From the NCBI GenBank assembly GCA_016182485.1, contig JACPGH010000005.1:64305-128304 (forward strand): a stretch of 64,000 nucleotides of DNA. The letters run 5' to 3'. Below the pieces are notes generated by a model. The model was not told where the DNA came from. It did no database searches and saw only the letters and a program-made list of their open reading frames with translations. Below are positions 1,728-50,518 of the stretch, piece by piece. Positions within the stretch are counted from its first letter, which is position 1. The number at the start of each line of letters is the position of its first letter. This DNA is from Candidatus Kaiserbacteria bacterium. GTDB lineage: Bacteria; Patescibacteriota; Minisyncoccia; Phycocordibacterales; Phycocordibacteraceae. The translations under genes were made by a program, and so were the position numbers.

Positions 1728-1822
1728 TAGGCGCTAGGCTCTAGGCGCTAGCAAAATACATTATTAAAAGTGCACCTTCTCATGCTAACACGCAGCTAGA
1801 GCCTAAAGCCTAGTGCCTGGGC
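1728..1822. repeat. two CTAG-rich heptamer tandem clusters (CTAGGCK)n
   Basis: ggcgctaggctctaggcgctagc at 1728-1752 and gctagagcctaaagcctagtgcctgg at 1794-1822. The same family recurs at seven more sites. Confidence 0.6.
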
Positions 1823-1828
1823 TTTGGC

Positions 1829-2095
1829 CTACTTTTTTAAATCCAGCTTCTTCACGAGCGCATTGTAACGGCGCTTATCGTGCGTCTCGAGATAACGCAG
1901 ATGCGTGCGGCGCGTGGCCACCATCTGCAGAAGCCCGCGGCGGGAATGGAAATCCTTGGGATTCTTCTTCAAATGCTTAGCGAGGTCGTCGATCTGCTTG
2001 GACAGAAGCGCTACCTGTACGTCCGGCGACCCGGTGTCCGCGTCGTGCCGGGCGGCATTTTTAATGATTGCCGCCTTTTTCTTGGTGGTAAGCAT
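1829..2095 (-). CDS. rpsO: 30S ribosomal protein S15
   Basis: 88 aa. GDTGSPEVQVALL...HSRRGLL signature of S15. Confidence 0.9.
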   Translation of the reverse strand: MLTTKKKAAIIKNAARHDADTGSPDVQVALLSKQIDDLAKHLKKNPKDFHSRRGLLQMVATRRTHLRYLETHDKRRYNALVKKLDLKK

Positions 2096-2195
2096 GGATA
2101 TCCGACTTTACCACGCCCAACGCTAAAACGCAAGTCCAGCTTTTTAGCTCGTATCACAGGATTAATGTGCGCACATAGCTTGTTATACTCTTCGC

Positions 2196-3134
2196 ATGAA
2201 TGCGGAGACGGCGAAGCGGCAGTTTCTGGAATATATCGAGATCGAGCGCGGGCGCGCCGTGAAAACCGTCGAGAATTATGACCGGTATCTCTCGCGCTTT
2301 TTTACGCAGATGAAAATAGGGGACGTACGCGATATCGATGAAAAGAGCGTGCGCGAATTTCGCCTGTGGCTCAACCGTCAACCCTCTTTCGCTAAAGCTA
2401 CGGAGGGCGCAGCCGGGACATTAAAAAAGCGGACCCAAAATTATTACATGATCGCGCTCCGCGCGTTCCTGAAGTTTCTGCGCAAGCGGGATATCGCGGC
2501 GATTTCTCCGGAAAAGATAGAGCTTGCTAAGCTGCCGGAGCGTCAACTCGATTTAATTACGCCGGCAGAGCTCGAGCGCCTCATGCGGGCGCCTTCTGAC
2601 GCGCTGGAAAAGGAAAAGGACCCGGACAAAATAACCCGATGCGCGCGCGACCGGGCAATTTTAGAGCTCCTCTTCTCTACCGGCCTGCGCGTCTCGGAGC
2701 TCTGCTCGCTCGACAGCGACCTGGATCTCTCGCGCGATGAGTTCTCCGTGCGGGGCAAAGGCGAGAAAGTGCGGGTCGTCTTTCTCTCCCCTGCCGCCAA
2801 AGAGGCCATTCGCGCTTATTTAAAGCTGCGCAAAGATATGGAAGAGGCGCTCTTCGTGGACGGCCGCCCCGAGAAACCGCACCGCATCACTCCGCGCGAC
2901 GTGCAAAGGCATTTGAAAAAATATGTCGTCCGGGCAGGCATTACGAATATTGTGACGCCCCACACCCTGCGTCACGCATTCGCCACCGATCTCTTGCGCA
3001 ATGGCGCCGACATCCGCTCGGTGCAACAGCTCCTCGGCCACGCTTCCATCAACACGACGCAGATCTACACGCATGTCACCGACGCGCATTTGCGCGAGAT
3101 ACATAAAAAATATCATTCGAAAAATCGCAAGTAA
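2196..3134 (+). CDS. tyrosine recombinase XerC/XerD family
   Basis: N-terminal SAM-like domain plus C-terminal HTLRHAFAT...LLGHASINTTQIYTHV catalytic region with R..HxxR..Y residues. Confidence 0.85.
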   Translation: MNAETAKRQFLEYIEIERGRAVKTVENYDRYLSRFFTQMKIGDVRDIDEKSVREFRLWLNRQPSFAKATEGAAGTLKKRTQNYYMIALRAFLKFLRKRDIAAISPEKIELAKLPERQLDLITPAELERLMRAPSDALEKEKDPDKITRCARDRAILELLFSTGLRVSELCSLDSDLDLSRDEFSVRGKGEKVRVVFLSPAAKEAIRAYLKLRKDMEEALFVDGRPEKPHRITPRDVQRHLKKYVVRAGITNIVTPHTLRHAFATDLLRNGADIRSVQQLLGHASINTTQIYTHVTDAHLREIHKKYHSKNRK

Positions 3135-3212
3135 CCATATCCAAGATAATCGACGGTCGTCCATTATTTTGGATATTCCTTTGTTTTAGTATTTTGCAAA
3201 ATACTAAAATGC

Positions 3213-3869
3213 TCACTTTTCTCGTACCAAGAAGTACTCCGCCTTTGGCGATTTTTCGTACATTTCAAGCAGACCCTTGATATCGCCGATCTGCGACTCG
3301 TGTTGCTTGAGCGCTTCGAGCTTTTTCTGCCAAGTGCCAGTGACGTTGGAAACGTATTTTATGTCCGATTTTTTGTACCCGGGCGGTACATAAATAAAAT
3401 ATTTCCATTTCCGGCGCTTGGGCGTTTCGAGCCTGCAAAATTGCAGAAGCTTTTTCACGAATGGTAGTCGCTCGAATACGTAGTTCGAGACCATCGCCAT
3501 CGTAATATGGTCGATGTGGCCCGAGACGCCGCGCGGCTCGTAGGTGAGAAGAGTATCCGGTTTTATTTTCTTTAAAATGCGTTCGATCTTCCGCGCAATG
3601 TCGTGGTATAGGTTATTCGAGAGCGCCCCGTCCTTAAATCCTAAGAAAAATACCTCTTTTACGCCGAGGATTTTCGCCGCTCGCTTAAGTTCCAGGGCGC
3701 GGATATTCCCGAGCGCTTTTGCGCCCCTCTTTCCCCTATATTCGCCCGCCTCCCCCTTCGTCGCGCATATAAGATAGACGTCGCGCTCCTGCGCGAACTT
3801 CGCGATAGTCCCGCCTGGCCCGAAGGCCTCGTCATCCGGATGCGCGAATATGCAAACCAATGGCTTCAT
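3213..3869 (-). CDS. PIG-L/LmbE family deacetylase
   Basis: MKPLVCIFAHPDDEAFGPGGT motif. The track ORF extends upstream, but the start at M98 (3869) fits the family. Confidence 0.7.
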   Translation of the reverse strand: MKPLVCIFAHPDDEAFGPGGTIAKFAQERDVYLICATKGEAGEYRGKRGAKALGNIRALELKRAAKILGVKEVFFLGFKDGALSNNLYHDIARKIERILKKIKPDTLLTYEPRGVSGHIDHITMAMVSNYVFERLPFVKKLLQFCRLETPKRRKWKYFIYVPPGYKKSDIKYVSNVTGTWQKKLEALKQHESQIGDIKGLLEMYEKSPKAEYFLVREK

Positions 3870-3910
3870 GTTGAGACTATACACCTGCGACAAAGATGTA
3901 GAATACCCGC

Positions 3911-4705
3911 ATGAAACTCGCGTCGTGGAATGTGAACGGCCTGCGGTCGCTTGCGCCGCAGCAAAATCTTTTTGCGAAGCAGACGCCGAATTACTGGGAA
4001 ATTTTCCTTCAAGCAGTAAGGCCTGACATCTTCTGTTTGCAAGAGGTGAAAGCGAGCCCGGAACAAATTCCGGAAGCGATGCGCTCCCCTGCCGGATACT
4101 CCTCATTTTTCTCCGCTTGCCGCACGCGCAAGGGCTATAGCGGCGTCGCGCTTTATACAAAGGTTAAACCTTTGTCAGTTGTATATGATCTCGGCATCCC
4201 GGAATTTGACGAGGAGGGCCGCTTTATCGGCGCCGAATACGAAGATTTCTGGCTCCTGAATGTCTATTTCCCGAACGGCGGCCGCGGCCCAGAACGGCTC
4301 GACTATAAATTGCGTTTCTATGACGCCTTTCTTCTCTTTGCCGAAAAATTGCGTAAAAATAAACCGGTCATATTTTGCGGAGACATAAATACAGCCCACG
4401 AAGAGATCGATTTGGCGCGGCCGAAAGAAAATGAACGCAATACAGGCTTTTTGCCCGAAGAGCGCGCGTGGCTCGACGAGGTTGTGGCCGCCGGTTATGT
4501 GGACTCGTTCCGCCATTTCCATCCGCATACGCGGGATGCCTACTCCTTCTGGGATTCCTACACGTATGCCCGCGAACGCAATGTCGGCTGGCGCATCGAC
4601 TACTTCTTCGTCGCGCGCGAATTTATGCCGCGCGTCCAGAAGGCCGAAATCCACTCCCAAATCTTCGGCTCCGACCACTGCCCTGTTTCTATTGTTCTTT
4701 CGTAA
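3911..4705 (+). CDS. xth: exodeoxyribonuclease III (AP endonuclease)
   Basis: SWNVNGLR...CLQEVK...GSDHCPV motifs of the ExoIII/APE family. Confidence 0.85.
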   Translation: MKLASWNVNGLRSLAPQQNLFAKQTPNYWEIFLQAVRPDIFCLQEVKASPEQIPEAMRSPAGYSSFFSACRTRKGYSGVALYTKVKPLSVVYDLGIPEFDEEGRFIGAEYEDFWLLNVYFPNGGRGPERLDYKLRFYDAFLLFAEKLRKNKPVIFCGDINTAHEEIDLARPKENERNTGFLPEERAWLDEVVAAGYVDSFRHFHPHTRDAYSFWDSYTYARERNVGWRIDYFFVAREFMPRVQKAEIHSQIFGSDHCPVSIVLS

Positions 4706-4749
4706 AATCGCTCTTCTGAACCTCGAATTCGTTTCGAAACTCGGAACAG

Positions 4750-4788
4750 CGGGCGAAGTGATGGGCACGACGTGTCCATCACTTCGCC
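4750..4788. repeat. long perfect hairpin (partial repeat A plus palindrome B) between convergent xth and the XRE gene
   Basis: gggcgaagtgatgggcacgacgtgtccatcacttcgccc, about a 19 bp stem. Likely a bidirectional terminator or repeat element. Confidence 0.55.
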
Positions 4789-4799
4789 CAGTCAGCACT

Positions 4800-5192: not shown

Positions 5193-5246
5193 GATGCCTT
5201 CCTCCTCTACTCACAAGGTTCGCAAGGTCCCTTCCCGGTCTGTAAA

Positions 5247-6189: not shown

Positions 6190-6196
6190 TTCGCGG

Positions 6197-8760: not shown

Positions 8761-10269
8761 TTAGCACACGTGGTGTTTTTCCATTATTTGGCGTACTTCC
8801 TCATTTTCGGCGGCTTCCCGCCTTTTCTTCCCCGCTTCCCCAAGCCTCTTGAGTTCATTCTCGTCCAGCATTAACAGTTCTTCGGTTCTCTTATCTAGAT
8901 AGTCATGCACGTTTCGCGCGGAATCGTCCAAGACTTCTTCGAGCAGTGCATTCAGGACATATCCTATCCTAGGCCCCGGTTTCGCGTGGAACTTCTCCAT
9001 TATCCTGGTGCCATCTGTCTTCAGCATCTTCACAGAGATAGGATCTCGAAGAGCCTGTTCCACCATAGCTTTGTACTTCCTGAATCTAAAAGGCTGTTCC
9101 TTAGGCCGTCCCGTCCCAATCCGGTCGCATATACGGAGGTTAAGCAAGTCCCAAATATTTTCCTGTCCAACATTCGTAACCATTCTGCGTACGGCCGATA
9201 ACGTTATCTGATCAGGATCAGAAAAGAACATGTGCCACCGGACAAGCTTTACTACCTTGTCTATTGTTTCGCGTGGAAAGTGCAGCTCCTCTAGAGCTTT
9301 TTTGGTTACACGTGAACCAACCACGTCGTGTCCATGAAAGGTCCAGTCTTTTTTTTCGTCGGACCATCGGCGGCTCTCGGGCTTCGCTATGTCATGGAAG
9401 AGCCCGGCAATCGTAACGTCGAAGCCGAAGCGCTTATCCGCCCCGTGCTGCATTGTACGGAGATTGTGCTCAAAGACATCGTAGCTATGCGCCTGGTTTT
9501 GCTCGACGCCAATACCTCGCACTAAATCGCCGACTATGAATTCGAGAATGCCGAGCTGGTGGGCGAGCACGAGCGCATTCATCGGCTTCTTTGACTCTAG
9601 AATACGCACAAGCTCATCTCGAATCCTCTCGCGCGAAATTTGGCTTAAATGCTGACTGTTTTGCTTAATGGCAGCGGCCGTGTCGCTCTCTATGCCGAAG
9701 TCGAGCTCAGCCACAAGCCGCACGGCCCGGAGCATTCGCAGGGCGTCCTCATCAAAGCGTTCTCCGGCGTTCCCGACGGCTCGTATTATCTTGTCCTTTA
9801 TGTCCTTTTGACCATCATACGGGTCCACTATTTGTCCTTTATCTGCATCGAGAGCGATGGCATTTATCGTAAAGTCACGCCGGGCAAGGTCTTGGAGAAG
9901 GGAAGTGCCAAATTCGACCTTGTCCGGCCGACGCTTGTCGGAATAGCCGGATTCGGTGCGGTAAGGTGTCACCTCGACTATTGCCAGCCGCTCGTCCTCT
10001 GAACCGGTCTTCACGCCCACCGTGCCGTATTCATTTTCATAAAAAGAATCAGGAAATACGGCCTGGATTTGCTCCGGGGTAGCGTTCGTGGTGAGGTCCC
10101 AGTCCTTCGGCTCGCGGCCGAGGATAAGGTCGCGGACACAGCCGCCCACCAAATACGCTTCAAATCCCTTTTCATGAAGGGAGTTCGATACCCGAGAAAT
10201 CTCTTCCGGGATAGGGAAGCGCATATCCACAATGCTAGCATAGCGTGCTAACTTAGATTCGAGGAACAT
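8761..10269 (-). CDS. cca: CCA-adding enzyme (tRNA nucleotidyltransferase with HD domain)
   Basis: GGCVRDLILGR...DWD head motif plus C-terminal HD domain (LFHDIAKP). The start at MFLESK (10269) is chosen because the upstream ORF extension translates across a tRNA. Confidence 0.8.
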   Translation of the reverse strand: MFLESKLARYASIVDMRFPIPEEISRVSNSLHEKGFEAYLVGGCVRDLILGREPKDWDLTTNATPEQIQAVFPDSFYENEYGTVGVKTGSEDERLAIVEVTPYRTESGYSDKRRPDKVEFGTSLLQDLARRDFTINAIALDADKGQIVDPYDGQKDIKDKIIRAVGNAGERFDEDALRMLRAVRLVAELDFGIESDTAAAIKQNSQHLSQISRERIRDELVRILESKKPMNALVLAHQLGILEFIVGDLVRGIGVEQNQAHSYDVFEHNLRTMQHGADKRFGFDVTIAGLFHDIAKPESRRWSDEKKDWTFHGHDVVGSRVTKKALEELHFPRETIDKVVKLVRWHMFFSDPDQITLSAVRRMVTNVGQENIWDLLNLRICDRIGTGRPKEQPFRFRKYKAMVEQALRDPISVKMLKTDGTRIMEKFHAKPGPRIGYVLNALLEEVLDDSARNVHDYLDKRTEELLMLDENELKRLGEAGKKRREAAENEEVRQIMEKHHVC

Positions 10270-10334
10270 TGTGGTTCCTCTCTTCGTCCCGGTATCGTTC
10301 AAGCAAATACCGGAGCTCGCTCGGCGAACTCTTC

Positions 10335-10406
10335 GCCCCGGTGGTGAAATGGATATCACAGCTGACTTCGGATCAGCTATTCTGGGTTCGAATCCTGGCC
10401 GGGGCA
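10335..10406 (+). tRNA. tRNA-Arg (anticodon TCG)
   Basis: Hand-folded 72 nt cloverleaf: acceptor GCCCCGG/CCGGGGC, D arm GTGA/TCAC, anticodon stem GCTGA/TCAGC with loop CTTCGGA, T loop TTCGAAT. No encoded CCA. Confidence 0.7.
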
Positions 10407-10454
10407 CATTGCGAAAGGCGGCCTCAGAGAGGCCGCCCTGTGAGATGCGCGGAA

Positions 10455-10667
10455 CTAGGCTTTGTCGCGAGGCGGTATCCAGCGCGGTAGACCTCGAGGG
10501 CCTACTGACCAGTAGCCGCCCCTCCGCTCCAACCGATCCAGGCGATCGAACTCCTCCTCTGTAGGCTTGTGCCATGGCCGCAAAGCCAATGCCCCCAAGA
10601 TTCCAAAAAGAACAGGCAGTCCGATGAGGAGAAACAAGAGCACTAGCCCACTCCAGTCCCCAAACAC
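10455..10667 (-). CDS. hypothetical small membrane protein
   Basis: One TM helix followed by a charged tail. Confidence 0.3.
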   Translation of the reverse strand: MFGDWSGLVLLFLLIGLPVLFGILGALALRPWHKPTEEEFDRLDRLERRGGYWSVGPRGLPRWIPPRDKA

Positions 10668-10669
10668 AG

Positions 10670-10888
10670 CTACCTCCCTTCTGGATGAATGCGTCGAACA
10701 AGGCGGCCAGTCTTGTTGATGTGCAGCTGCCGGAGCGCCTTCCCGATCTGCCGACGCTCGTGCCGGATCGCGGAGGGGAAGTCTTTGTGCTTGCCAGACT
10801 GCACCTCCTTGAGCAAATCTACGTAGCAGGCGTTGAGGAACTGCAAGAGTCCTCTTACTGCCGGTTTGTTGAATCCGCTTGGTGGCAT
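10670..10888 (-). CDS. hypothetical protein
   Basis: ORF only. Confidence 0.25.
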   Translation of the reverse strand: MPPSGFNKPAVRGLLQFLNACYVDLLKEVQSGKHKDFPSAIRHERRQIGKALRQLHINKTGRLVRRIHPEGR

Positions 10889-21881: not shown

Positions 21882-22550
21882 ATGAGAGAAACCGAACGTG
21901 TCGAGATTCTCATCGACGCAGGGAACTTCTATCATCTTGCGCTTAAGAAACTTGGCGTCGCGGAAATAGATTTCGATTATGAGGCCTTTGTTTCTTTTCT
22001 CATGAACGGCCGCACGCTCGTCCCTGAAGGGAAGCGATTATATGTCGGTACCGTACGCGAAAAAGAAGGCGATTTGAGGACGAAGAACGCGATGGCCGAA
22101 CAGCGCCGGTTCTTGTCAGTGCTCCTATCGGCGAAATGGCAGATAAAGACCAGCAAACTCCGATCGCGCATTGAAGAGATAGCTGTTGATTCGCGCATGC
22201 AGGAGTACAAAACTCTGACTGCCGCGGGTGTTCAAACGATTCACGTTGAACGCATGCGCGAAAAGGGTATCGATGTGAAAATCGCGACTGATCTCATCGT
22301 CGGAGCAGTAGACGATAAATATGATACTGCAATTGTCATCAGTTCAGATACCGATTTAGTTCCCGCCATTGACTGGGTTCGGATGCGAAAGAAGAAACGC
22401 GCCGAGTACGTAGGATTTTCAATTCCCGATGCTCGCGGCAACGCCTATGCGTCGAAGCCGACGTTTGCGCTCATCGCGCGGACGGATGTCCAGCGCATCC
22501 TAGTTGAATCGGACATACGGCGTTTTATTAAGCAAAAACTCATGCCATAG
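21882..22550 (+). CDS. NYN-domain (LabA/DUF88-like) protein, second copy
   Basis: IDAGNFYH...GIDVKIATDLIVGAVDDKYDTAIVISSDTDLVPAI. Confidence 0.65.
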   Translation: MRETERVEILIDAGNFYHLALKKLGVAEIDFDYEAFVSFLMNGRTLVPEGKRLYVGTVREKEGDLRTKNAMAEQRRFLSVLLSAKWQIKTSKLRSRIEEIAVDSRMQEYKTLTAAGVQTIHVERMREKGIDVKIATDLIVGAVDDKYDTAIVISSDTDLVPAIDWVRMRKKKRAEYVGFSIPDARGNAYASKPTFALIARTDVQRILVESDIRRFIKQKLMP

Positions 22551-24332: not shown

Positions 24333-24359
24333 GCGGCCCCGACGCACCGTCGGGGCCGC
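24333..24359. terminator. GC-rich hairpin terminator, followed by a CTAG-repeat cluster at 24363-24392
   Basis: gcggccccgacgcaccgtcggggccgc. Confidence 0.5.
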
Positions 24360-24386
24360 GTTGGCTAGAGCCTAGCACCTAACTGG

Positions 24387-24662
24387 CTAGCGGATCGCCT
24401 CCTTGAGCGCCTTCGCCGGGCGGAACTTCGCCGTGCGGGTCGCCGCGATGCGGATCGTCTCGCCGGTGCGCGGGTTACGACCCTCCCGCGCCGGGCGCGC
24501 CTTGGTCGCGAAGATGCCGAGTCCGGCGACCGATACCTCGTCGCCAGATTTCAGACTGGAAACGATACAATCTATCACCGTCTCAACGGCGCGCTCCGCG
24601 TCGGCCTTCGTCGAGCCGAGCGTGCTGTGCACCTTGTCAATTATGTCTGCTTTGTTGGCCAT
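24387..24662 (-). CDS. hup: HU-family DNA-binding protein
   Basis: MANKADIIDKV...GLGIFATKARPAREGRNPRTGE.I.I typical of HU/IHF. Confidence 0.85.
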   Translation of the reverse strand: MANKADIIDKVHSTLGSTKADAERAVETVIDCIVSSLKSGDEVSVAGLGIFATKARPAREGRNPRTGETIRIAATRTAKFRPAKALKEAIR

Positions 24663-24823
24663 GGGAATGTTTAATCGGGTAATGAAATAAGTATAGAATG
24701 CGCCGCTTTTCGCGCAATACCCTTGCCAACTCCCAGTGGATAGCGCGGAATAAAAAACAACAGGCTCCCTCCGCTTCGCCGTTCCGCGAAGCTTCAGGGA
24801 GCCGAGGACGTGCCGGGGCGGAA

Positions 24824-25114
24824 TCATTCTTTTTTCCTGTCCGGCACGCATGTTTCTCCGTCAAAACGGCTGTACTCCGGGTAATTCACCCGGCAGTACT
24901 CGTTCAGAAGCTCGTCCACTAGGACACGAGCCTCCTTGGAGCTGACCTTTTCTGGTAAACGGCGAGCTCGCTCGCACTCTACCAGACGGCCCGCAAGTTC
25001 CGGATGCTCCGAGCAGACAGTGCGGGGCGCCGCTAGGGCGAACGATACCGGCCTTGTGAGCGTTCCTGCGAGCAACAGCACGCAAAGGGATATTGGCAGG
25101 CGGTGGCGGTACAT
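24824..25114 (-). CDS. hypothetical secreted small protein (signal peptide, Cys-rich)
   Basis: MYRHRLPISLCVLLLAGTLT signal-like N-terminus. Confidence 0.3.
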   Translation of the reverse strand: MYRHRLPISLCVLLLAGTLTRPVSFALAAPRTVCSEHPELAGRLVECERARRLPEKVSSKEARVLVDELLNEYCRVNYPEYSRFDGETCVPDRKKE

Positions 25115-28319: not shown

Positions 28320-29262
28320 AATAGCAGACTGAGGCGCTAGGCGCTACTCGCCTCGCTGAAGTCCGGCGAAGCGGGAGCTTTAGCAGTAATGCAAATCCTC
28401 AATCAACCAACGAGACCCTCGCGGGCTGAACAGAGGAGCAAACGCACGGAACCATCCGGCGTTTGTCCAACCGATTAACCAAAGAACAAAAAGAACTGCT
28501 TGCCCGTCGCGCGAAGCGCGAGCAGGGCTGGAGCCCATTTACGGCTGGGCTCCCCGCACCGGTGTCGCCGCTTAACGGCAGGCGACACGTGCCGTCCACT
28601 TGATTTCTATTTCGTCAGCCGGCAAGTGAATAAACCCGGCTCCTGACTCCCCGCGGATAAGCGGGAAGATACCCTTAGCCCGGCCTGCCCTGAACTTGTC
28701 GAAGGGCAAAGGGCGTCGGGGTATGTCGCCGTCGCATGCGCTTCGTCCCTAGCGTGTTCGCGCTATAGGCGGGACGTCGCCGCACGCGCGGGCGGATGTG
28801 CACTGCAACGGGCTCGCTTAGAGCCCGCTCCACGGATTTTTCATCCGTGCACCTCCTTTCTCGCCGATTTAACCCTCGGGCGCGGGGTTCGCCGCGACGC
28901 GAACTACTTCTTCGCGCGCCTTCAGGGAATCGCTCACCCTTCTTCGCTTTTGAGCTACGAAGGGCGCAGTGCGATCCCTCGTACCGTACCGATCCATACA
29001 ACAAGTAAAGAGGTTTAACCTCTTTACTTCGTCGCGGATGCAGTCCGGCAACGAGGAACAACATTGCAGTAGCCGCTCCGCCCGCTGGCGGACGCGACGA
29101 TTGTTCTGCCTTGTCCCTGGCTACCTATGGGTTCTGTCAGAGAACCACTGGCTTGCTAACACCCTAGCATACTCTGTCTACTTTGTCAAGTAGTTTTTGA
29201 GACCGCAACATGCGCTACTTGAGATAAGCAGCAAATAAGCCAAATTATCGGGCAGGCAGCAG
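28320..29262. other. about 0.95 kb GC-rich ORF-poor region; candidate large structured ncRNA(s), unidentified
   Basis: No credible ORF; the track ORFs here are Arg-rich low-complexity. Many stable hairpins. Contains hairpin C (29003-29029) and is bounded by a CTAG repeat at 29263-29300. Confidence 0.25.
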
Positions 29263-29301
29263 GAGCTAGATTCTAGCAGTCACCTAGCGCCTAGAGCCTA
29301 G

Positions 29302-31056: not shown

Positions 31057-31338
31057 TCAGTTTCCGGAATGAGCGGTTGAAAATATGCCGAGATCCTTGA
31101 AAAGTTCTTTGGTGCTGGTGTACTTCTTACCGTTCTTGATAGCATCGGCGACCTCGCGGTCCCATTTTGCCCGCAATGCGGCAGGATTCTTGGTGGGCAT
31201 AAAGGGCAGGCCTTGCTCCGTCACCACCTGATTCAAGAAAAGCTTCACGCCACTAGATAAGTCCAGCCCAACTCCTTCGAGCGCCTTCTTGGCGGCCTTC
31301 TTGGTTTTTTCTTCAATTCTGACATTCAACGTAGTCAT
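31057..31338 (-). CDS. DinJ/RelB-family antitoxin
   Basis: LNVRIEEKTKKAAKKALEGVGLDLSSGVKLFL..V..QGLPF matches the DinJ pattern. Confidence 0.65.
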   Translation of the reverse strand: MTTLNVRIEEKTKKAAKKALEGVGLDLSSGVKLFLNQVVTEQGLPFMPTKNPAALRAKWDREVADAIKNGKKYTSTKELFKDLGIFSTAHSGN

Positions 31339-36099: not shown

Positions 36100-36725
36100 C
36101 GCTGGAAACTAGAGACTTGATACTGGATGCTGGCAAGACGGAGGGAACAACCAGAAACCAGCACCGAGCGGCCAGCCGCCAGGGGTTTACGCTCGTGGAA
36201 ACGAGCATCGTCATTGCGCTCACGGTATTCGAGCTCGCCGCGCTCACGAATCTCTACATCCTTTTCAATTCGACGTACGGGTATGAGGAGGCTTCGATCG
36301 CCACTGCCGGCAGCTCGAGCGCGGCAATGAGCGCCTTCGGCGAAGCCGTCTTGCCCGCCCGACGAATACTCTCTTCCCGCGATTTTACCGGCACGGTCTA
36401 CGAATCTGCTGCCGCGACTCTTGTGCTTGAGGTGCCGGCAGTCGACAGCGCCGGCGGTCTCATTCCAGACACGTACGACCACATCGCGTTCTATACCTCC
36501 GGAAACTCGCTCTACCGACTCACTGAGTCGGCGCCCGGCAGTATCCGCCGCTCTGGTCTTACTCTGCTTTCCTCGACTCTCGCGTCGCTCTCATTCGCAT
36601 ATGACAATCCTGCCGTTGAGAGCTCGACGAGCGTCGCGGCGGACCTCTCGACACGAGCGCAATTCAAACAGCAGGCAGTCGAGAGCCGTCTCTCTGGCAT
36701 TTGGTACTTGCGCAATTTGCCATGA
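36096..36725 (+). CDS. pilin-like protein with a long leader (cleavage predicted at ...RQG|FTLVETSIV)
   Basis: ATGA overlap with the upstream pilin. 29-aa leader with an LxxxDLILDAG motif. Confidence 0.5.
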   Translation: MTLETRDLILDAGKTEGTTRNQHRAASRQGFTLVETSIVIALTVFELAALTNLYILFNSTYGYEEASIATAGSSSAAMSAFGEAVLPARRILSSRDFTGTVYESAAATLVLEVPAVDSAGGLIPDTYDHIAFYTSGNSLYRLTESAPGSIRRSGLTLLSSTLASLSFAYDNPAVESSTSVAADLSTRAQFKQQAVESRLSGIWYLRNLP

Positions 36726-38107
36726 ATCTGGAGCCTGGAAACTTGATACTGGAGGCTGGCGGAAAGAGGCCCAGTAACCAGCAACTAGCAACTAGCAACC
36801 AGCGTGGCTACGTTCTCTTGCTTACACTGGTTTTTATGGGCATCTTCGCAACAGTCGCAACTGCGCTCGTAGGTTCCGTAATTTCTTACGGGAAAGTAGA
36901 GCGATCTAGAGTAGCGAGCGCTCAAGCGCTCGCCATTGCGGAAGGCGCGCTCGATCTCGCCGTCGAGCGATTAAATGACGATCCATTCTACGGCGGCACT
37001 GCTGAAACGTCCCTAGGAGAAGGGACATTCACGATCGAAGTCGCGACCATCGACCAAGAAACAAGGCGGGTCACCGCCACCGGTTATGTGCCGAGCAGCG
37101 GGGAAAGGAGGGCAATGAAGACAGTCCGAGCGAATGTCGGGATAGTGGATTCCCGCATCTCATTCCATTACGGAATACAGTCGGGGAACGGCGGTTTCGA
37201 GATGCGCAACAATTCGATAGTAAGCGGAAATATTTTCTCGAACGGAAGAGTGGCAGGCGACGGGACCAATAATATGGTGTACGGGGATATCATTTCCGCG
37301 GGCGCGAACGGCCTCGTCTACGGCGTGCATGCGACCGGAACCGTGCGCGCGCACTCGATCGGAAACGCATCGGCCAACACGATTATTGACACGGATGCTC
37401 ATTACTATGAGACAAAGGTGAATACGACTGTGGCCGGGACTTCTTTCCCGGGCAGCGCGGATCAGACGAGCGCCCCGCTGCCTATATCCGACGCTCAGAT
37501 CGCTTCTTGGGAAGCGCAAGCGGCCGCTGGAGGAGTCGCGAGCTGTTCGGGAGGCCAGTATACGATTTCTTCCGGAGCAATCTCGCTCGGACCCGTTAAA
37601 ATCCCCTGCGATCTCGTGATAAGCAATAGCGCCGTCGTTACCGTACGAGGCCATATCTGGGTAGCGGGGAATATCTCGGTGCAGAACTCCGCCAAGGTGA
37701 AAATGGACCCGTCGCTGGGATCGAAAAATGTCGCCATCATCGCCGATAATCCGGCGAACCGCTTGACGAGCAGTATAATCACCGTCCGGAATACAGCCAC
37801 GTTCGAGAATTCCGGAACTCCCGGCTCGTTCGTCTTCCTAATTTCGCAGAACAACAGCGCGGAGCTGGGCGGCGCCGTCGTGGCCTTCGAACTGGGCAAC
37901 AGCGCTTCCGCGCTCGTCGCATACGCCGCGCACGGGCTCATTCCGCTTGCCAATTCTGTGTCGCTCAGAGAGGTGACCGGCTACAAAATTACGCTCGCAA
38001 ATTCCGCGAGCATCGTGTACGACACCGGCCTCCCTAGCTCTGTTTTTGAATCGGGTCCGGGCGGGAGCTGGAGCTTCGTCCCAGGCACGTACGCGATAAC
38101 GCGCTAG
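36722..38107 (+). CDS. large pilus-associated protein (PilX-like N-terminus; Gly/Asn-rich repetitive body)
   Basis: ATGA overlap. Leader MNLEPGNLILEAGG...QRG|YVLLLTLVF is paralogous to the previous gene's leader. Confidence 0.45.
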   Translation: MNLEPGNLILEAGGKRPSNQQLATSNQRGYVLLLTLVFMGIFATVATALVGSVISYGKVERSRVASAQALAIAEGALDLAVERLNDDPFYGGTAETSLGEGTFTIEVATIDQETRRVTATGYVPSSGERRAMKTVRANVGIVDSRISFHYGIQSGNGGFEMRNNSIVSGNIFSNGRVAGDGTNNMVYGDIISAGANGLVYGVHATGTVRAHSIGNASANTIIDTDAHYYETKVNTTVAGTSFPGSADQTSAPLPISDAQIASWEAQAAAGGVASCSGGQYTISSGAISLGPVKIPCDLVISNSAVVTVRGHIWVAGNISVQNSAKVKMDPSLGSKNVAIIADNPANRLTSSIITVRNTATFENSGTPGSFVFLISQNNSAELGGAVVAFELGNSASALVAYAAHGLIPLANSVSLREVTGYKITLANSASIVYDTGLPSSVFESGPGGSWSFVPGTYAITR

Positions 38108-38193
38108 CTATTAGGCTCTAGGCTCTAGGCGCTAGCAGCCCCAGATCAGGAATAAGCTAGAGCCTAGCGCCTGTCCGAGTGCCTAGAGCCTGC
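38101..38193. repeat. two CTAG-heptamer clusters
   Basis: gcgctagctattaggctctaggctctaggcgctagc ... gctagagcctagcgcctgtccgagtgcctagagcc. Confidence 0.6.
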
Positions 38194-38205
38194 TACTATT
38201 AAGGA

Positions 38206-38982
38206 ATGCTTATCGTCGCGAATTGGAAGGCATACGTGGAGGACCTCGCCCGCGCGAAAAAGCTTTTGGCCGTCTCTAAGCGACTTGCGCGACAAAGCCA
38301 GGCGACTATCGTACTCGCTCCCCCCGCGCCGCTCTTAGGCGCGCTCGCGCTGAACAACCGGTCTAACGTGGCCTTCGCCGCGCAAGACATATCGGTGACG
38401 ACTGGCGGCGCGCAGACCGGCGAGATAACCGCCGGCGCATTCGAGGCGGTCGGCGCCGCCTATGCGCTTATCGGACACTCCGAACGCCGCGCGAGAGGAG
38501 ATACGGCCGTTTCAGTTGCGGAGAAAATTTCCCACGCGCTCGCTCAAGGTTTGAGGCCAATTCTATGCGTCGGCGAACCTGAACGGGATGCCGAGGGACG
38601 GTATCTCTCGTTCATACGCGAAGAACTGACATCCGCCCTGTCTGCTGTCGCGCCCAGGGAGCGCGCGGAAATAATTGTCGCCTACGAACCGCTCTGGGCG
38701 ATCGGTAAGAGTGCCGACGCAGCCGCGAGCGCGAATGACCTCGGCGAAATGACCCTCTATATCCGCAAAGTGCTCGCCGAACTGCTCCCGGGCCGTCCTT
38801 CGCCGGAGGCTTCGGCGAGGCGAGGCAAAAGCTCGCGAGAATCGCTCGTTCTCTATGGCGGCTCCGTAGAGCCGGACAATATTCGCGACCTCGCGGCAAG
38901 CTCCGGCCTGGATGGGTTTCTTATCGGCCACGCCTCGGTGGATCCCCGACTATTCGCGGCTTCGGTAAAGCAGCTCGCGTAG
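38206..38982 (+). CDS. tpiA: triosephosphate isomerase
   Basis: VANWK, IGHSERR and AYEPLWAIG motifs. Confidence 0.85.
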   Translation: MLIVANWKAYVEDLARAKKLLAVSKRLARQSQATIVLAPPAPLLGALALNNRSNVAFAAQDISVTTGGAQTGEITAGAFEAVGAAYALIGHSERRARGDTAVSVAEKISHALAQGLRPILCVGEPERDAEGRYLSFIREELTSALSAVAPRERAEIIVAYEPLWAIGKSADAAASANDLGEMTLYIRKVLAELLPGRPSPEASARRGKSSRESLVLYGGSVEPDNIRDLAASSGLDGFLIGHASVDPRLFAASVKQLA

Positions 38983-42841: not shown

Positions 42842-43285
42842 ATGAGCGTGTATACTCTTAAAATGCAATTCACTATCCACGCCGACGGGGGCGCGAGAGG
42901 AAACCCGGGGCCGGCCGGTGCGGGCGCTATTGTCCGTGACGAACTCGGCAATGCGGTTGCGAGCGTCTCGCAGTTTCTCGGGCATCAGACGAATAATTTT
43001 GCGGAATACGAAGCGGTGATACTTGCATTTGAAAAATTAGCGGCGCTCGTTCCGGAAGGGAAGCGCGGCGGAACCGATGTAATAGTAAAAATGGACAGCG
43101 AACTAATCGTGAAGCAGATGCGCGGCGAGTACAAGGTGAAGCATCCGAATTTAAAAGCGCAGCATGCGCGGCTGCTGCAGTTAATCGGCGCGTTTAAATC
43201 CGTAACGTTCGCGCACGTTCCGCGCGCGCAAAACTCCGACGCCGACGCGCTCGCCAACGCAGCCATGGACCGCGGTGTTTCATGA
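42842..43285 (+). CDS. rnhA: ribonuclease H (type 1)
   Basis: DGG.RGNPG...E..A.......D.ELIV.Q catalytic-residue pattern. Confidence 0.7.
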   Translation: MSVYTLKMQFTIHADGGARGNPGPAGAGAIVRDELGNAVASVSQFLGHQTNNFAEYEAVILAFEKLAALVPEGKRGGTDVIVKMDSELIVKQMRGEYKVKHPNLKAQHARLLQLIGAFKSVTFAHVPRAQNSDADALANAAMDRGVS

Positions 43286-46974: not shown

Positions 46975-47170
46975 CGCCCCAGATTTAACTTCTCGGCCGA
47001 TCGGTGATAATCTTTATAATAGAATCCGCAGTGAAAGGAGGTGGCGACATGCGAGTGGGCGCCTATGGGCGGATACCGATGCCCGTAACGCCGTCGAACG
47101 AGCGCGTCGACCAGCTGTGGCTGCGCTGGTTGCGCGAGAAGCTGCGCCGACGGAAACGAGCGCAAGCTGC

Positions 47171-47201
47171 CAAGACGGCCCGCCCCTAGGCGGGCCGTCT
47201 A
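47171..47201. terminator. hairpin terminator
   Basis: gacggcccgcccctaggcgggccgtc. Confidence 0.45.
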
Positions 47202-47266
47202 TATTGATAAGTCATTTTTGCTCGGGGCCATTTGACTAAGTATATACCGGCGTATATACTGCCCGC

Positions 47267-47521
47267 ATGACGACAACGATCCAAAAGTGGGGGAACAGCT
47301 ATGCCGTGCGCCTTCCCAAGACCGCCGTGCGTAAGCTTAATCTGCGGGCTGGTCAGTCCGTGGAGATTCGGGAAGCCGCTCACGGCAACGCGCCTTTCCT
47401 CTCCATTATTCCCACGCGACACCGTGTGCCGCCCCTTTCGGAAATGCTCGCGCGCATCACGAAGAAAAACCGCCATTCCGTCACCGATTGGGGCGAAGCG
47501 GTCGGGCAAGAGATATGGTAG
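47267..47521 (+). CDS. mazE: MazE/AbrB-fold antitoxin
   Basis: IQKWGNSYAVRLPK ... TDWGEAVGQEIW matches MazE end to end. Confidence 0.7.
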   Translation: MTTTIQKWGNSYAVRLPKTAVRKLNLRAGQSVEIREAAHGNAPFLSIIPTRHRVPPLSEMLARITKKNRHSVTDWGEAVGQEIW

Positions 47522-47859
47522 CGAAGCGCCCGCGCGTTCCTTGTCGCGGCGATATCATGTGGCTTGACTTCAACCCGGTTCGCGGGCATGAACAGGACGG
47601 AAGACGCCCGGCGCTTGTAATTTCTCCGGAGAAATACAATGTGGCGGCGGGACTCGCGCTGGTATGCCCCGTAACCTCTAAAACAAAAGGGTATCCTTTC
47701 GAGGTTGAATTCAAAATAAAGGCCGCGCAGGGAATAATACTCGCCGATCAGATCCGCGCGATAGACTGGACAAAGCGCCGCGCGGAGAAGCTCGGGACCG
47801 TATCAGAAGCGGTCATAACAACGGTGCAGGACTGCGTGAGAAAGCTCATCTTGGATTAG
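47516..47859 (+). CDS. mazF: MazF/PemK-family endoribonuclease toxin
   Basis: RGDI.WLDF.P..G.EQ.G.RPALVIS...VCPVTSK; start overlaps the mazE stop. Confidence 0.75.
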
Positions 47860-47977
47860 GTATTGACATATTTAAATAGAGTGTAGTATACTTTAAATTA
47901 GAAGTGCGGCTCTGTCAAAAAACGTTGTAAGTACGCCGCCCGGCGTTCACCGGGCACTGTCCCTGAGGAGGGGCATC

Positions 47978-48421
47978 ATGAAGAAGTTCGCCGCGCAGTT
48001 CACGCTCGCGTTCGCGTTCGTCATTGGGATCGCCGCGCTCGTCGCGCCGGCGCCCGCCGCGGCCGCCCAGGAGTGCGAGATCCGGTTCTGCTGGACCCAG
48101 GGCTACGTCGCCCCGGCCGGGCTCCTGGCGGCCAACCGGGTCCCCGTGCGATTCAACCTTCTCGATGACTTCGGCAACGTCATCGGCCAGATCCTGGTGT
48201 CGTCGGTCGCGATGAGCGACTTCCTGTCGCTCTACTCGACCTTCGGAATGCCGCCGATCGAGGTGGTGACGAAGCCCGTCTTCTACAGGGACGGGACGAT
48301 CGGCGCCGGGTGGGTTCTCAAGCCGGTGTGCCTGTATCCGGCAGAGGGGCCGACCGGCAGCCTCTGTGGCTGGCACGAGCCGGAGCCGACCGAGCCGCCC
48401 GTCCCGGACGGCAAGGGGTAG
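47978..48421 (+). CDS. secreted Cys-containing hypothetical protein (signal peptide); markedly higher GC than neighbours
   Basis: MKKFAAQFTLAFAFVIGIAALVAPAPAAAA signal peptide. About 70% GC with GC-rich third positions. The overlapping minus-strand ORF is judged spurious. Confidence 0.4.
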   Translation: MKKFAAQFTLAFAFVIGIAALVAPAPAAAAQECEIRFCWTQGYVAPAGLLAANRVPVRFNLLDDFGNVIGQILVSSVAMSDFLSLYSTFGMPPIEVVTKPVFYRDGTIGAGWVLKPVCLYPAEGPTGSLCGWHEPEPTEPPVPDGKG

Positions 48422-48572
48422 CACAGTTCCCGAAGGGGTCGTCTCGCCATCGGCGGACGACCCCTTCACTCTTTAGTGCCGAAAAGTGTTTCGAGATTAA
48501 AGAGTGATTAATTAAGTGAGTTTGAACAGCACGATGAAATTCGCGCGCTTCCTACTGGTATACTTATGCGCA

Positions 48573-49013
48573 ATGGAATACCAGGTGCCGCAGTTCATCG
48601 AAGTAGAAGACAAGATCGTCGGGCCGCTGACGCTCAAGCAGTTCATCTACCTCGCAGGCGGCGGGGGACTGTGCATCGTTTTCTTCGTGTACTTGCATCT
48701 CATACTCGCCCTTCTCTTCTCGGCGCCGATCGTCGCGCTCGCCGTCGCCCTCGCGTTCTACAAGAAAAACGGCAAGCCTTTCGTGGAGATAGTCGAGGCC
48801 GGCTTCAATTATTACGTTACCGGCAAGTTGTTTCTCTGGAAGCACGAGGAGCCGACCGCCAAGGAGAATAGCGCTGCCGCCGCGGCGGCGGCGGCGCAAG
48901 AGTCGGCAAGCCGCGCGAAGAATCCCAGACTTACGCGCGGCAAGCTCACCGAACTCGCTTGGGCGCTTGACGTCAAGGCGCTCGGCGGCACCCCGCAGAG
49001 CCGCGAACAATGA
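48573..49013 (+). CDS. PrgI-like small membrane protein (conjugation/T4SS-associated family)
   Basis: MEYQVPQFIEVEDKIVGPLTLKQFIYL N-terminus and two TM helices are characteristic of PrgI-family proteins. Confidence 0.45.
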   Translation: MEYQVPQFIEVEDKIVGPLTLKQFIYLAGGGGLCIVFFVYLHLILALLFSAPIVALAVALAFYKKNGKPFVEIVEAGFNYYVTGKLFLWKHEEPTAKENSAAAAAAAAQESASRAKNPRLTRGKLTELAWALDVKALGGTPQSREQ

Positions 49014-49642
49014 TCATGCCTACGAGAGCCCCCGGAGCCACCCAGCAGTTCGTCCCGGTCAAAGAGATACGGAACGGCGTTGTCGTTCTTAAAGACGGAG
49101 GCTATCGCGGCATCCTTATCTGTTCCTCCATAAACTTCGGCCTGAAGTCGGCCGAGGAGCAGCACGCGATCACGGTAGGCTTCCAGAACTTCCTCAACAC
49201 GCTCGATTTCTCGATCCAGATAGTCGTGAATTCGCGCAAGATGGACCTCCGCCCATACCTCTCGCTTCTTGAGCAGAAAGGCGCCGATCAAAAAAGCGAA
49301 CTGATGCGGATACAGCTGCGCGAATACATGGCGTTCATCCGCTCCTTCACCGAACAGGCGAATATCATGACGAAATCTTTTTATATCGTCGTGCCCTATG
49401 CGCCGCATGTCTCCGCTACGAGCGCCCTCAATATTCTAGGACGTAAAGGTCCCAAAAACACGGCCGAGACGACCTTCGAAGAGGATCGCGCACAGCTGGA
49501 ACAGAGACTCGCGCTCGTCGCGGGCGGCCTCGGCGGCACCGGCGTGCGCGCCGTCCCGCTCGGGACGGAAGAGGTCATCGAACTTCTATATCGATCCTTC
49601 AATCCGGGGGAGTTGGAAAATCCAATAAGGCTAGATAGTTAG
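49010..49642 (+). CDS. VirB4/TraC-like N-terminal domain protein (probably the 5' part of the split VirB4 gene)
   Basis: VPVKEIRNGVVVLKDGGYRGILICSSINFGLKSAEEQ resembles the VirB4 N-terminal region. Overlaps the PrgI-like stop. Confidence 0.45.
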   Translation: MIMPTRAPGATQQFVPVKEIRNGVVVLKDGGYRGILICSSINFGLKSAEEQHAITVGFQNFLNTLDFSIQIVVNSRKMDLRPYLSLLEQKGADQKSELMRIQLREYMAFIRSFTEQANIMTKSFYIVVPYAPHVSATSALNILGRKGPKNTAETTFEEDRAQLEQRLALVAGGLGGTGVRAVPLGTEEVIELLYRSFNPGELENPIRLDS

Positions 49643-49668
49643 GCTCTAGGCGCTAGGCTCTAGCTCAA
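49641..49668. repeat. CTAG-heptamer tandem (left flank of cassette)
   Basis: ttaggctctaggcgctaggctctagctc. Confidence 0.6.
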
Positions 49669-49678
49669 TACAAAAACC

Positions 49679-50137
49679 ATGAAGATTTCGCACGACGAAC
49701 TTGCTAAGTTTCTGGATGCAGCAAACAAGTCGACATACGCAAATAAAGACGCGCCGAAATCAGCGTCTTTGAGACCGTCCTCGGAGGACTACCATTTCGA
49801 GCTGGGGGACCTTGCCTATCATGACACCTACTTTGGTGCGCGCGATTTTATCGGGGAAGAAGTTGTGTACAAAATCTCGAAACCAGTGTGGGGTATGAAT
49901 TATTACGGCTATTTATTGAATCCCGACATATCTGCTGATGAAGTCTACACGGTTCTTCGTTCGGCATTATACAGCGATACATTACCAGTACGAGGACCTC
50001 GAGAGCACATTCGAGGAACTAGTAAGTATGCGAATCAAGTTGATGGAACGCTAAATAGATTTTCGGGCGAAGAAAAGATCTATTTTGATACGGAATTGGT
50101 GTACTGCTGTTGGTATCACGGCGGAAGTATTGAATGA
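49679..50137 (+). CDS. hypothetical protein (DUF5680-like?)
   Basis: ORF only; family assignment tentative. Confidence 0.3.
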   Translation: MKISHDELAKFLDAANKSTYANKDAPKSASLRPSSEDYHFELGDLAYHDTYFGARDFIGEEVVYKISKPVWGMNYYGYLLNPDISADEVYTVLRSALYSDTLPVRGPREHIRGTSKYANQVDGTLNRFSGEEKIYFDTELVYCCWYHGGSIE

Positions 50138-50138
50138 T

Positions 50139-50510
50139 ATGCAAACATTTCGGGATCTCGTCGTTTGGCAGAAGGCGGTCGAACTTGCTAAACAAATATA
50201 TATCCTGACACATCAGTTTCCCACGGAAGAGCGATTCGGTCTGGCTTCGCAAATGCAACGAGCCGCCGTCTCGATTCCCTCGAACATCGCTGAAGGAAAG
50301 CTGCGCGGGTCGTCGAAAGAATTTATACACTTCCTGCGTGTTGCCTTCGGGTCTGGTGGCGAACTTGAGACACAGATAGAAATCGCAAAGCGCTTACCGA
50401 GAACGGCAGCATTGAATTTCGCGTCGGTAGAAGCACTTCTCGATGAAATAATGCGGATGCTGAATGCTATGATTTCTGGTAGCGGGCATAAGCTAGCGCC
50501 TAGAGCCTAG
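50139..50510 (+). CDS. four-helix-bundle protein (family typically found in 23S rRNA intervening sequences)
   Basis: FRDLVVWQKA.EL...IY.LT..FP..E.FGL.SQ..RAAVSIPSNIAEG signature. Confidence 0.6.
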   Translation: MQTFRDLVVWQKAVELAKQIYILTHQFPTEERFGLASQMQRAAVSIPSNIAEGKLRGSSKEFIHFLRVAFGSGGELETQIEIAKRLPRTAALNFASVEALLDEIMRMLNAMISGSGHKLAPRA

Positions 50511-50518
50511 CGCCTGTA
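50491..50518. repeat. CTAG-heptamer tandem (right flank of cassette, inverted relative to the left flank)
   Basis: aagctagcgcctagagcctagcgcctg. Confidence 0.6.

Follow-up and report, generated by a model that had tools for sequence, protein, structure and literature searches.

The window analyzed here is a 64 kb stretch (56% G+C) from a Candidatus Kaiserbacteria genome (contig JACPGH010000005.1, positions 64,305 to 128,304), in which short tandem arrays of the heptamer CTAGGCK lie between genes and appear to form the arms of hairpin elements. A first-pass annotation, made from the DNA letters alone, had listed eight such sites, and sequence inspection found the repeat sequences at all eight. 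In the following, F denotes an array reading CTAGGCK on the plus strand and R denotes an array reading MGCCTAG. The elements always read 5'-(CTAGGCK)n...(MGCCTAG)n-3', in an order identical on both strands. An F...R pair reads alike from either strand; the reverse arrangement, R...F, would be something else. The 5' arm comprises three to five tandem CTAGGCK heptamers, and the 3' arm comprises complementary MGCCTAG heptamers. Three clear F...R pairs (loops of ~40 nt, ~20 nt, and 0.82 kb), one probable pair (0.9 kb), and one solo arm were found, with the short loops spanning 20-42 nt. Only one of these five elements carries a gene of the 23S rRNA intervening sequence (IVS) protein family. The arm order common to all pairs, the hairpin formation, and the family of this gene were points that the first-pass annotation had missed. 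The elements and their contents are as follows.

1727-1754, plus strand: 5' arm of element 1, TTAGGCG CTAGGCT CTAGGCG CTAGC; folds with 1793-1822
1755-1792: loop of element 1, about 40 nt, no open reading frame (ORF)
1793-1822, minus strand: 3' arm of element 1, AGCTAG AGCCTAA AGCCTAG TGCCTGG
24362-24392, minus strand: solo arm directly after the HU gene (24387-24851, minus strand); the TAG in its terminal CTAG serves as the HU stop codon
28332-28346, plus strand: short arm of two units, AGGCGCTAGGCGCTA; pairs with 29263-29301 in the predicted fold
28347-29262, minus strand: putative structured non-coding cargo between nusA and ppa
29263-29301, minus strand: arm 1 nt after the nusA stop codon, reading CTAGGCT CTAGGCG CTAGGTG ACTGCTAG AATCTAGC on the minus strand
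38101-38138, plus strand: 5' arm of element 3; its first CTAG holds the stop codon of the pseudopilin-like ORF 36701-38107
38155-38193, minus strand: 3' arm of element 3, interrupted by GTCCGAGT; tpiA starts at 38206
49639-49668, plus strand: 5' arm of the gene-carrying cassette, TTAGGCT CTAGGCG CTAGGCT CTAGCT
49679-50137, plus strand: cargo gene 1, a DUF5680 protein of 152 aa (Pfam PF18931, E 8e-30)
50139-50510, plus strand: cargo gene 2, a four-helix-bundle protein of 123 aa (S23p, "23S rRNA intervening sequence protein")
50490-50518, minus strand: 3' arm of the cassette, AGCTAG CGCCTAG AGCCTAG CGCCTGT; the VirB4 ATPase ORF starts at 50522

Co-directional genes that are otherwise only a few nucleotides apart flank the elements. 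On the minus strand, the orders are rpsO, element 1 (1727-1822), and an NYN gene; HU and the solo arm (24392-24362); and nusA, the 0.9 kb insert (29301...28332), and ppa. Element 3 (38101-38193) lies between the pseudopilin gene and tpiA, and the cassette (49639-50518) separates the TraC-like N-terminal half of a VirB4 gene from its ATPase half. The 5' arm of element 1 lies 13 nt upstream of the start of the minus-strand NYN gene at 1714, and its 3' arm lies 6 nt downstream of the stop codon of rpsO (1829-2095, minus strand). With 9-10 arrays per 64 kb, all sit in intergenic spacers or overlap gene ends by no more than 20 nt. Thus, the placement in spacers at gene ends that had been described was retained, except that several arrays are not strictly intergenic.

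The arrays close the neighboring reading frames. As the unit is 7 nt long and CTAG is a palindrome, three units put a TAG in every frame of both strands, and translation from the neighboring genes therefore stops at the stem edge. Generally, three units of period 7 or 8 close all three frames if they contain a stop codon, and CTAG units close all six. A TAG within an array is the stop codon of four ORFs, namely the TraC-like ORF 49010-49642, the pseudopilin-like ORF 36701-38107, HU (24387-24851), and the four-helix-bundle gene (50139-50510), and the stop codon of nusA is 1 nt from the adjoining array.

The array signal was evaluated statistically in the window. Tandem Repeats Finder reported period-7 arrays starting at 1728, 1796, 29283, 38112, 49640, and 50493, with 2.7-3.4 copies. 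The pattern AGGCKCTAGGCKCTAGGCKCTAG (23 nt, up to three mismatches) had five matches, compared with none in each of 100 dinucleotide shuffles. CTAG pairs spaced exactly 7 nt apart occurred 14 times vs 0.14 expected (maximum of 2 in 2000 random placements), and none were found at spacings of 4-6, 8-10, or 12 nt. Single CTAGGCK heptamers numbered 18 on both strands, mostly within arrays, vs ~19 expected; thus, the signal resides in the tandem arrays, as the single heptamer is not above chance. The arrays contain mixed G and T units and are not pure expansions.

CTAG had been supposed to be rare, and it was indeed the most depleted of the 16 palindromic tetramers, with 96 occurrences vs 243 expected from base composition (ratio of 0.40). 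The arrays (326 bases, 0.51% of the window) contain 30 of these 96 occurrences, and the ratio decreased to 0.27 once they were excluded. Under a trinucleotide-based expectation, the ratio was 0.90, and the depletion therefore sits in CTA, TAG, and TA.

Two arrays were found beyond those listed previously, namely the short arm 28332-28346 and a related CYAGCAA array at 36771-36803. The latter (CCAGTAA CCAGCAA CTAGCAA CTAGCAA CCAGCGT) is located in the apparent leader-coding part of the GspK-like pseudopilin ORF, which stays open across it: the two TAGs are out of frame, and the neighboring units have CCAG instead of CTAG. A degenerate heptamer array at 63867-63897 (AGTAAAC AGTAAGC AGTTTGC AGTAGGC AGTCAGA) occupies the spacer upstream of a minus-strand YebC-family gene and does not form a hairpin.

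Arms, loops, and cargo

The short-loop elements were predicted to fold stably. The fold of 1720-1830 reached -46.7 (plus strand) and -48.9 (minus strand) kcal/mol, with z-scores of -3.8 and -4.7 relative to shuffles; that of 38098-38198 reached -42.1 and -50.0 kcal/mol (z-scores of -1.4 and -2.4). Two hairpin copies in a related locus of Patescibacteria, L029, had fold z-scores of -6.2 and -6.5. The solo HU arm is followed on the minus strand by a GC-rich 13-bp hairpin at 24333-24360. The frequent mismatch at the seventh position of the paired units was considered as a designed feature and rejected; it holds in L029, but the arms of the window cassette match perfectly after a shift in register, and other unit families pair perfectly.

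The pair of inverted copies previously noted around 49679-50510 was confirmed as the arms of the cassette. The two arms, 49639-49668 and 50490-50518, pair in blocks of 6 bp; with the register shifted by 7 nt, they match perfectly over 16 bp. The first TAG of the 5' arm is the stop codon of the TraC-like/VirB4 N-terminal ORF 49010-49642, and the last codons and stop codon of the four-helix-bundle gene lie within the 3' arm. The four-helix-bundle protein matched PF05635 (E 7e-37) and TIGR02436 (118.8 bits vs a cut-off of 24) and was 100% identical to a Candidatus Kaiserbacteria protein. Its closest solved structure was PDB 2GSC, Xanthomonas campestris XCC0516 (E 9e-24). The NCBIfam model for Avd gave a sub-threshold match (E 1e-5, 25.4 bits vs a cut-off of 80).

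The nusA-ppa spacer is 990 nt long in the window, compared with 57-80 nt and no heptamers in four relatives. Between its arms, 28347-29262 contained no credible ORF (Arg-rich junk ORFs only) and had no Rfam match; its predicted fold reached -470 kcal/mol (z-score of -9.8) for the minus strand, which is the transcribed one, and the plus strand had a z-score of -7.5. On this predicted fold, 28332-29301 is probably a second cargo-carrying element, in which the assignment of the arm 28332-28346 is weaker than that of the other arms, and it may contain a structured RNA not yet described or the remains of decayed cargo. As to whether paired inverted copies flank further cassettes, arms of the CTAGGCN type, in addition to those of this probable insert, bracket four-helix-bundle genes in other loci. 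Another candidate, an F...R pair with a 1.1 kb loop in locus L056, was rejected as a cassette; it represents prfA-prmC with arrays in two successive spacers, which bracket an ordinary gene.

An identical perfect palindrome is present at 29003-29029 and 60330-60358, 31 kb apart, with arms AAGTAAAGAGGTT and AACCTCTTTACTT and one base between them. The copy at 29003-29029 falls inside the 0.9 kb insert.

Relatives and other genomes

The VirB4-like ATPase is encoded as two ORFs (49010-49642, TraC-like N-terminal; 50522-52336, P-loop) in the window and in the related loci L029, L033, and L199-L202. A hairpin or cassette sits exactly at this split in the window, L029, and L199-L202.

Gain, loss, and relocation of the elements were observed among relatives. 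The spacer at the VirB4 split is 50 nt long and has no element in Saccharibacteria L033, holds an empty F-loop-R hairpin in Patescibacteria L029, carries the four-helix-bundle gene alone between the arms, without DUF5680, in L199 (protein 82% identical), and contains both DUF5680 and the four-helix-bundle gene in Kaiserbacteria GWA2_50_9 (L200-202), as in the window. L203-205 have a 74%-identical gene, again with CTAGGCN arms, at another place, where T2SSE and T2SSF of a pilus operon flank it. From the comparison of L199-L205, the cassette, including its arms, therefore occurs at non-orthologous sites with modular cargo. DUF5680 was rejected as a regular partner of the four-helix-bundle gene, as it was found only in the closest relatives (L200-202 and the window). 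A Logan contig (L212) was 99.9% identical to 9.4 kb of the window; in this sole near-identical contig, the arrays were identical, and no strain-level copy-number variation was found.

Elements in the same genome share an arm unit, but this unit does not track the protein tree. The protein of L070 is 39% identical to that of the window, yet both have CTAGGCT arms, and the proteins of L119-124 are ~60% identical, yet their arms are built from TAGCTTN. This argues against a simple protein-specific recognition code, and the sharing of units fits insertion into resident hairpins, arm-arm recombination, or concerted evolution.

Starting from the protein, we collected 80 metagenomic four-helix-bundle loci and analyzed the 69 in which each flank was at least 150 nt long. 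The best tandem period was 7 or 8 in 58 of 69 upstream flanks and 57 of 69 downstream flanks. The flanks were mutually inverted repeats in 57 of the 69 loci (83%), compared with 7 of 207 permuted flank pairs (Mann-Whitney p ~1e-30), and inverted flanks surrounded only 3 of 74 other genes of the same loci (4%). The density of period-7/8 arrays was 3.4 per kb in the 250 nt adjoining either end of the gene, compared with 0.5 per kb elsewhere. The arm unit varied by locus (CTAGGCN, TAGCTTN, TGAGTCC, GGTCAGG, TAGGGAA, GTCGAGGT, and others). The 5' arm was C-poor and G+T-rich (0.62), with the 3' arm as its mirror (G+T of 0.40), and the 5' arm was always of the G/T type; this held even for CTAGGCK units, in which both strands contain TAG. 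Of 57 upstream arrays, 45 (79%) had a unit with a stop codon on the strand facing incoming ribosomes, vs 47% expected, and 34 had a unit with TAG.

The same flank pattern around a four-helix-bundle gene was observed in finished plasmids of Nostoc, Calothrix, Gemmatirosa, and Riemerella. In Azospirillum lipoferum, a four-helix-bundle ORF lies between heptamer-periodic arms inside the large subunit rRNA gene (Rfam RF02541), and this copy is a genuine 23S rRNA IVS.

Starting from the array, a pattern scan of 185,579 species genomes yielded at least 118 CTAGGCK loci. Among the matches listed, these spanned Acidobacteriota, Actinomycetota, Patescibacteria, Cyanobacteria, Gemmatimonadota, Planctomycetota, Bacteroidota, Proteobacteria, and others. 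The arrays of other phyla were long and homogeneous, grading into mutated units. For neighboring arrays in the window and the listed loci, F-then-R order was found 38 times vs 11 times for R-then-F; for loops shorter than 200 nt, the counts were ~33 and 3. A four-helix-bundle homologue was present in four of the at least 118 loci listed, always between F and R arrays of the CTAGGCN type; these were Longimicrobiales L070 (15 units), Acidobacteriota L026 and L057, and Saccharibacteria L033. Heptamer arms thus accompany almost all four-helix-bundle genes, but most heptamer arrays are without such a gene. An association argued from the array was dropped, as few CTAGGCK loci hold the gene; it becomes strong only with the gene as the starting point.

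In viral contigs, CTAGGCK arrays were found at 8 loci, compared with 11, 18, 7, and 0 for the composition-matched control heptamers CATGGCK, GATCGCK, TCGAGCK, and CTGAGCK, respectively. No four-helix-bundle gene was found near any CTAGGCK array in these contigs. As the controls were about as frequent there, the wide phyletic spread of CTAGGCK was dropped as a special sign.

Surrounding genes and other features

Pfam and NCBIfam annotation covered ~74 ORFs of the window. The gene set is typical of the candidate phyla radiation (CPR), including rpsO, nusA, ppa, HU, tpiA, pgk, RNase Y, dnaA, and dnaN, and the window also encodes type IV pilus/competence genes (ComEC, PilB-like, and PilC-like) and a cluster resembling a type IV secretion system. 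No cas gene, restriction enzyme, DNA methyltransferase, or transposase was found among the annotated ORFs. The Rfam search of the window retrieved tRNAs only and gave no identity for the arrays.

At 56009-59895, yidC-rnpA on the minus strand is followed by dnaA-dnaN on the plus strand, and the cumulative GC skew has its minimum at ~54-56 kb; this gene order and the skew minimum suggest a replication origin near 57.1 kb. The longest ORF of a gene of the CCA-adding/poly(A) polymerase type (8761-10701, minus strand) overlaps a tRNA-Arg gene (10335-10407, plus strand), and the true start of the gene is therefore probably downstream of the first TTG. The window also contains genes for a RelB-type antitoxin and a MazF/PemK-type toxin (31057-31338 and 47488-47859), two NYN-domain genes (1199-1714 and 21882-22550), and five scattered genes for TrmB-type regulators.

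Explanations and known systems

We favor, with some reserve, the explanation that the CTAGGCK arrays are paired arms of selfish, IVS-like hairpin elements, the stems of which would be cut by RNase III. The elements would be transcribed inside operon mRNAs, and their arms may pair into a stem of 20-30 bp. By homology with the rRNA IVSs that carry this gene family, RNase III could then cut the stem, freeing the loop RNA and separating the flanking cistrons, and the closure of reading frames may shield the stem from unwinding by translating ribosomes. In their behavior, the elements resemble selfish or near-neutral DNA, and their gain, loss, and relocation may proceed by recombination between the arms that all copies in a genome share or by an activity connected with the four-helix-bundle protein.

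Several observations weigh against this explanation. No RNase III (rnc) gene is present among the annotated window ORFs. Of the at least 118 CTAGGCK loci listed, 114 have no nearby four-helix-bundle gene, many of them being long solo arrays, and ~21% of the arm units around four-helix-bundle genes have no stop codon. The stems consist of 6-bp blocks with an often mismatched seventh position, and the weakest hairpin strand (38098-38198) only marginally exceeds shuffles (z-score of -1.4). No target-site duplication, transposase, or recombinase was seen with the elements, filled and empty sites being too diverged for duplications to be read. The reading of 28332-29301 as a cassette depends on its weak two-unit arm, and prmC of L056, bracketed by arrays ~1 kb apart, calls for caution in this respect.

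The four-helix-bundle protein might instead act in trans on the arms, creating, spreading, or maintaining the cassette and the gene-less hairpins, much as REP-associated tyrosine transposases (RAYTs) are paired with REPINs (hairpins of two repetitive extragenic palindromic, REP, sequences). In the window, a single gene-carrying copy is accompanied by several gene-less ones built from the same unit, which agrees with this, as do the arrays near the four-helix-bundle gene that share its unit in L127, L133, L143, L162, L170, L175, L185, and L189. Avd-type homologues are nucleic-acid-associated accessory proteins of retroelements (PMC10053308), and an idea of Ralph and McClelland, as the passage citing it in PMC4990558 has it, makes the IVS mobile, with its ORF as the mobility component. 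However, a helical bundle of 120 aa has no known catalytic activity, the arm unit does not follow the protein phylogeny (L070 vs L119-124), hairpins with other units occur in L125, L147, and L160, and the heptamer arrays of viral contigs have no four-helix-bundle gene nearby. The S23p ORF of Coxiella is, moreover, apparently untranslated and decaying (PMC4990558), and we consider such an action in trans unlikely. To a similar degree, we doubt that the arrays were selected primarily as all-frame (for CTAG, six-frame) stop blocks between packed genes, with the hairpin being secondary. CTAG at a 7-nt period does provide TAG in six frames within three units, four neighboring genes stop on an array TAG, stop-containing units exceed expectation (79% vs 47%; for TAG, 60% vs ~17% by a rough composition estimate), and the TAACTGA heptamers of Beggiatoaceae, Cyanobacteria, and Bacteroidetes also close all three frames (PMC4679880). 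The inverted pairing with its fixed arm order and the link to one gene family would be left unexplained, as would the ~21% of units lacking a stop codon, and the ending of ORFs at the arrays is partly circular, because any ORF must end there.

A role as REP-like 3' hairpins, which terminate transcription or protect the upstream mRNA from 3' exonucleases, would suit the stable predicted hairpins and the arrays directly after the stop codons of rpsO, nusA, HU, and the pseudopilin gene. This role is quite unlikely, as the hairpins, read in the direction of the upstream genes, are not followed by a T-run, the next gene begins 4-13 nt past the arm inside operons, a separate canonical GC-rich hairpin follows the HU arm, and the gene-carrying loops would find no explanation. 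Slightly less likely still are functionless repeats produced by neutral slippage, with fortuitous pairing. Heptameric simple sequence repeats (SSRs) are in unexplained excess in bacterial intergenic DNA, an excess attributed to slippage (PMC4692102), the long, homogeneous arrays of other phyla grade into mutated units, and control heptamers are about as frequent in viral contigs. The first-pass description of a repeat family built on CTAG as unexpected needs softening: the arrays are non-random and built on a depleted tetranucleotide, but tandem heptamers were already known to be over-represented between bacterial genes (PMC4692102), units with TAG form the commonest type flanking four-helix-bundle genes (34/57), and CTAGGCK does not stand out from the controls in viral contigs. 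Neutral slippage does not account for the 38 F-then-R vs 11 R-then-F neighbors, the inverted arrays around 83% of four-helix-bundle genes vs 4% of neighboring genes, the same arms bounding the cassette at non-orthologous sites, or the mixing of G and T units in the window. Finally, CTAG-specific restriction-modification or methylation, CRISPR targets or products, and DNA uptake sequences have next to no chance of explaining the arrays and are largely refuted for the window. CTAG is depleted, and competence and pilus genes (ComEC, PilB-like, and PilC-like) are present; however, the link to CRISPR spacers that had been proposed found neither a cas gene among the ~74 annotated ORFs nor spacers between the period-7 units, and the link to a CTAG-recognizing system found neither a restriction enzyme nor a DNA methyltransferase. 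Uptake sequences are usually frequent inside genes too, whereas single CTAGGCK heptamers are at or below chance, and the element class uses many unrelated units.

Beyond the favored hairpin-element explanation, S23p/Avd-like proteins and inverted 7-8-nt arrays might together constitute one widespread, unrecognized class of mobile hairpins, in which the protein acts in trans, the 23S (and 16S) rRNA IVSs are the special case residing in rRNA, and gene-less copies explain much of the intergenic heptamer excess, including the GGGAATC arrays of Xanthomonas. We put this forward tentatively and regard it as rather doubtful. In the window and ~90 related loci, two separate puzzles meet, namely the intergenic heptamer excess and the origin of rRNA IVSs and their S23p ORF: the S23p-type gene is almost always bracketed, whether inside rRNA or between ordinary genes, and gene-less hairpins with the same arms occur nearby. 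The annotation of CPR genomes is also affected, as the elements supply stop codons and separate tightly packed genes.

Among known systems, CRISPR arrays differ in having repeats of 23-50 nt with unique spacers, instead of head-to-tail 7-nt units without spacers. Miniature inverted-repeat transposable elements are similar as short, non-coding, intergenic elements with terminal inverted repeats that occur beside a longer gene-carrying version; the window elements differ in their internally tandem-repetitive arms, with no transposase-encoding parent in the window and no target-site duplication seen. REP sequences, bacterial interspersed mosaic elements (BIMEs), and the REPIN-RAYT system share the short, palindromic, multicopy intergenic elements and the single gene between inverted copies of the repeat. 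Their arms are a unique palindrome of ~35 nt, not tandem heptamers, and the genes in the window encode DUF5680 and PF05635 proteins, not a Y1 (IS200/IS605-like) transposase. The Avd protein of diversity-generating retroelements (DGRs) has a homologous four-helix-bundle fold, but no DGR reverse transcriptase or template/variable repeat pair adjoins the cassette gene; the one match in the window that resembles a reverse transcriptase, at 42842-43285, belongs to a protein with an RNase H domain.

The tandem heptanucleotides of Calothrix PCC 7601 are the short tandemly repeated repetitive (STRR) sequences. Another intergenic heptameric family is GGGGAYT of Nostoc, and X. campestris has 186 GGGAATC arrays, 70 of which form convergent inverted pairs, with 70-75 such pairs in Xanthomonas (PMC4692102). 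GGGAATC repeat 15 overlaps the start codon of XCC0516 (XCC0516-XCC0517), a gene listed only as "conserved" (PMC4692102 supplement); this gene, abutted by the published repeat, encodes the four-helix-bundle protein of PDB 2GSC. The heptameric SSR families resemble the window arrays in their tandem 7-nt units (two to at least 20 copies), their intergenic location near start and stop codons, and their many copies, and they differ in unit sequence. The papers on them propose roles as G-quadruplexes or translational regulators and draw no link to S23p genes or IVSs. In the searched literature, the coverage of which is incomplete, the CTAGGCK repeat sequence was not found, which is absence of evidence only, and there was no statement that S23p-type genes are generally bracketed by inverted heptamers. 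The bracketing of S23p-type genes by inverted 7-8-nt tandem arrays across phyla thus appears to be unstated within that coverage.

The closest similarity is to the 23S rRNA IVSs of Leptospira, Coxiella burnetii, Brucella, and Haemophilus (PMC4990558), which, like the window cassette, hold a PF05635/TIGR02436 gene in the loop. In Coxiella burnetii, the 23S IVS contains the S23p ORF, RNase III cleaves the stem formed by its inverted repeats at the first heptamer, and three tandem GACAGAT heptamers, the number of which varies among strains, lie upstream of the ORF (PMC4990558). Terminal inverted repeats forming a stem, tandem heptamers (in Coxiella, just upstream of the ORF and variable in copy number), and a sporadic distribution suggesting mobility are further points of likeness. 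The differences are that the window elements lie between protein-coding operon genes and not in helix 25 or 45 of 23S rRNA, that their arms are regular tandem heptamers of another sequence, with gene-less copies and other cargo, and that RNase III cleavage, reported for the Coxiella IVS, is only putative for the window elements. The elements are best filed as an extragenic, heptamer-armed relative of the S23p-carrying rRNA IVSs and as a new CTAGGCK flavor of the intergenic heptameric families.

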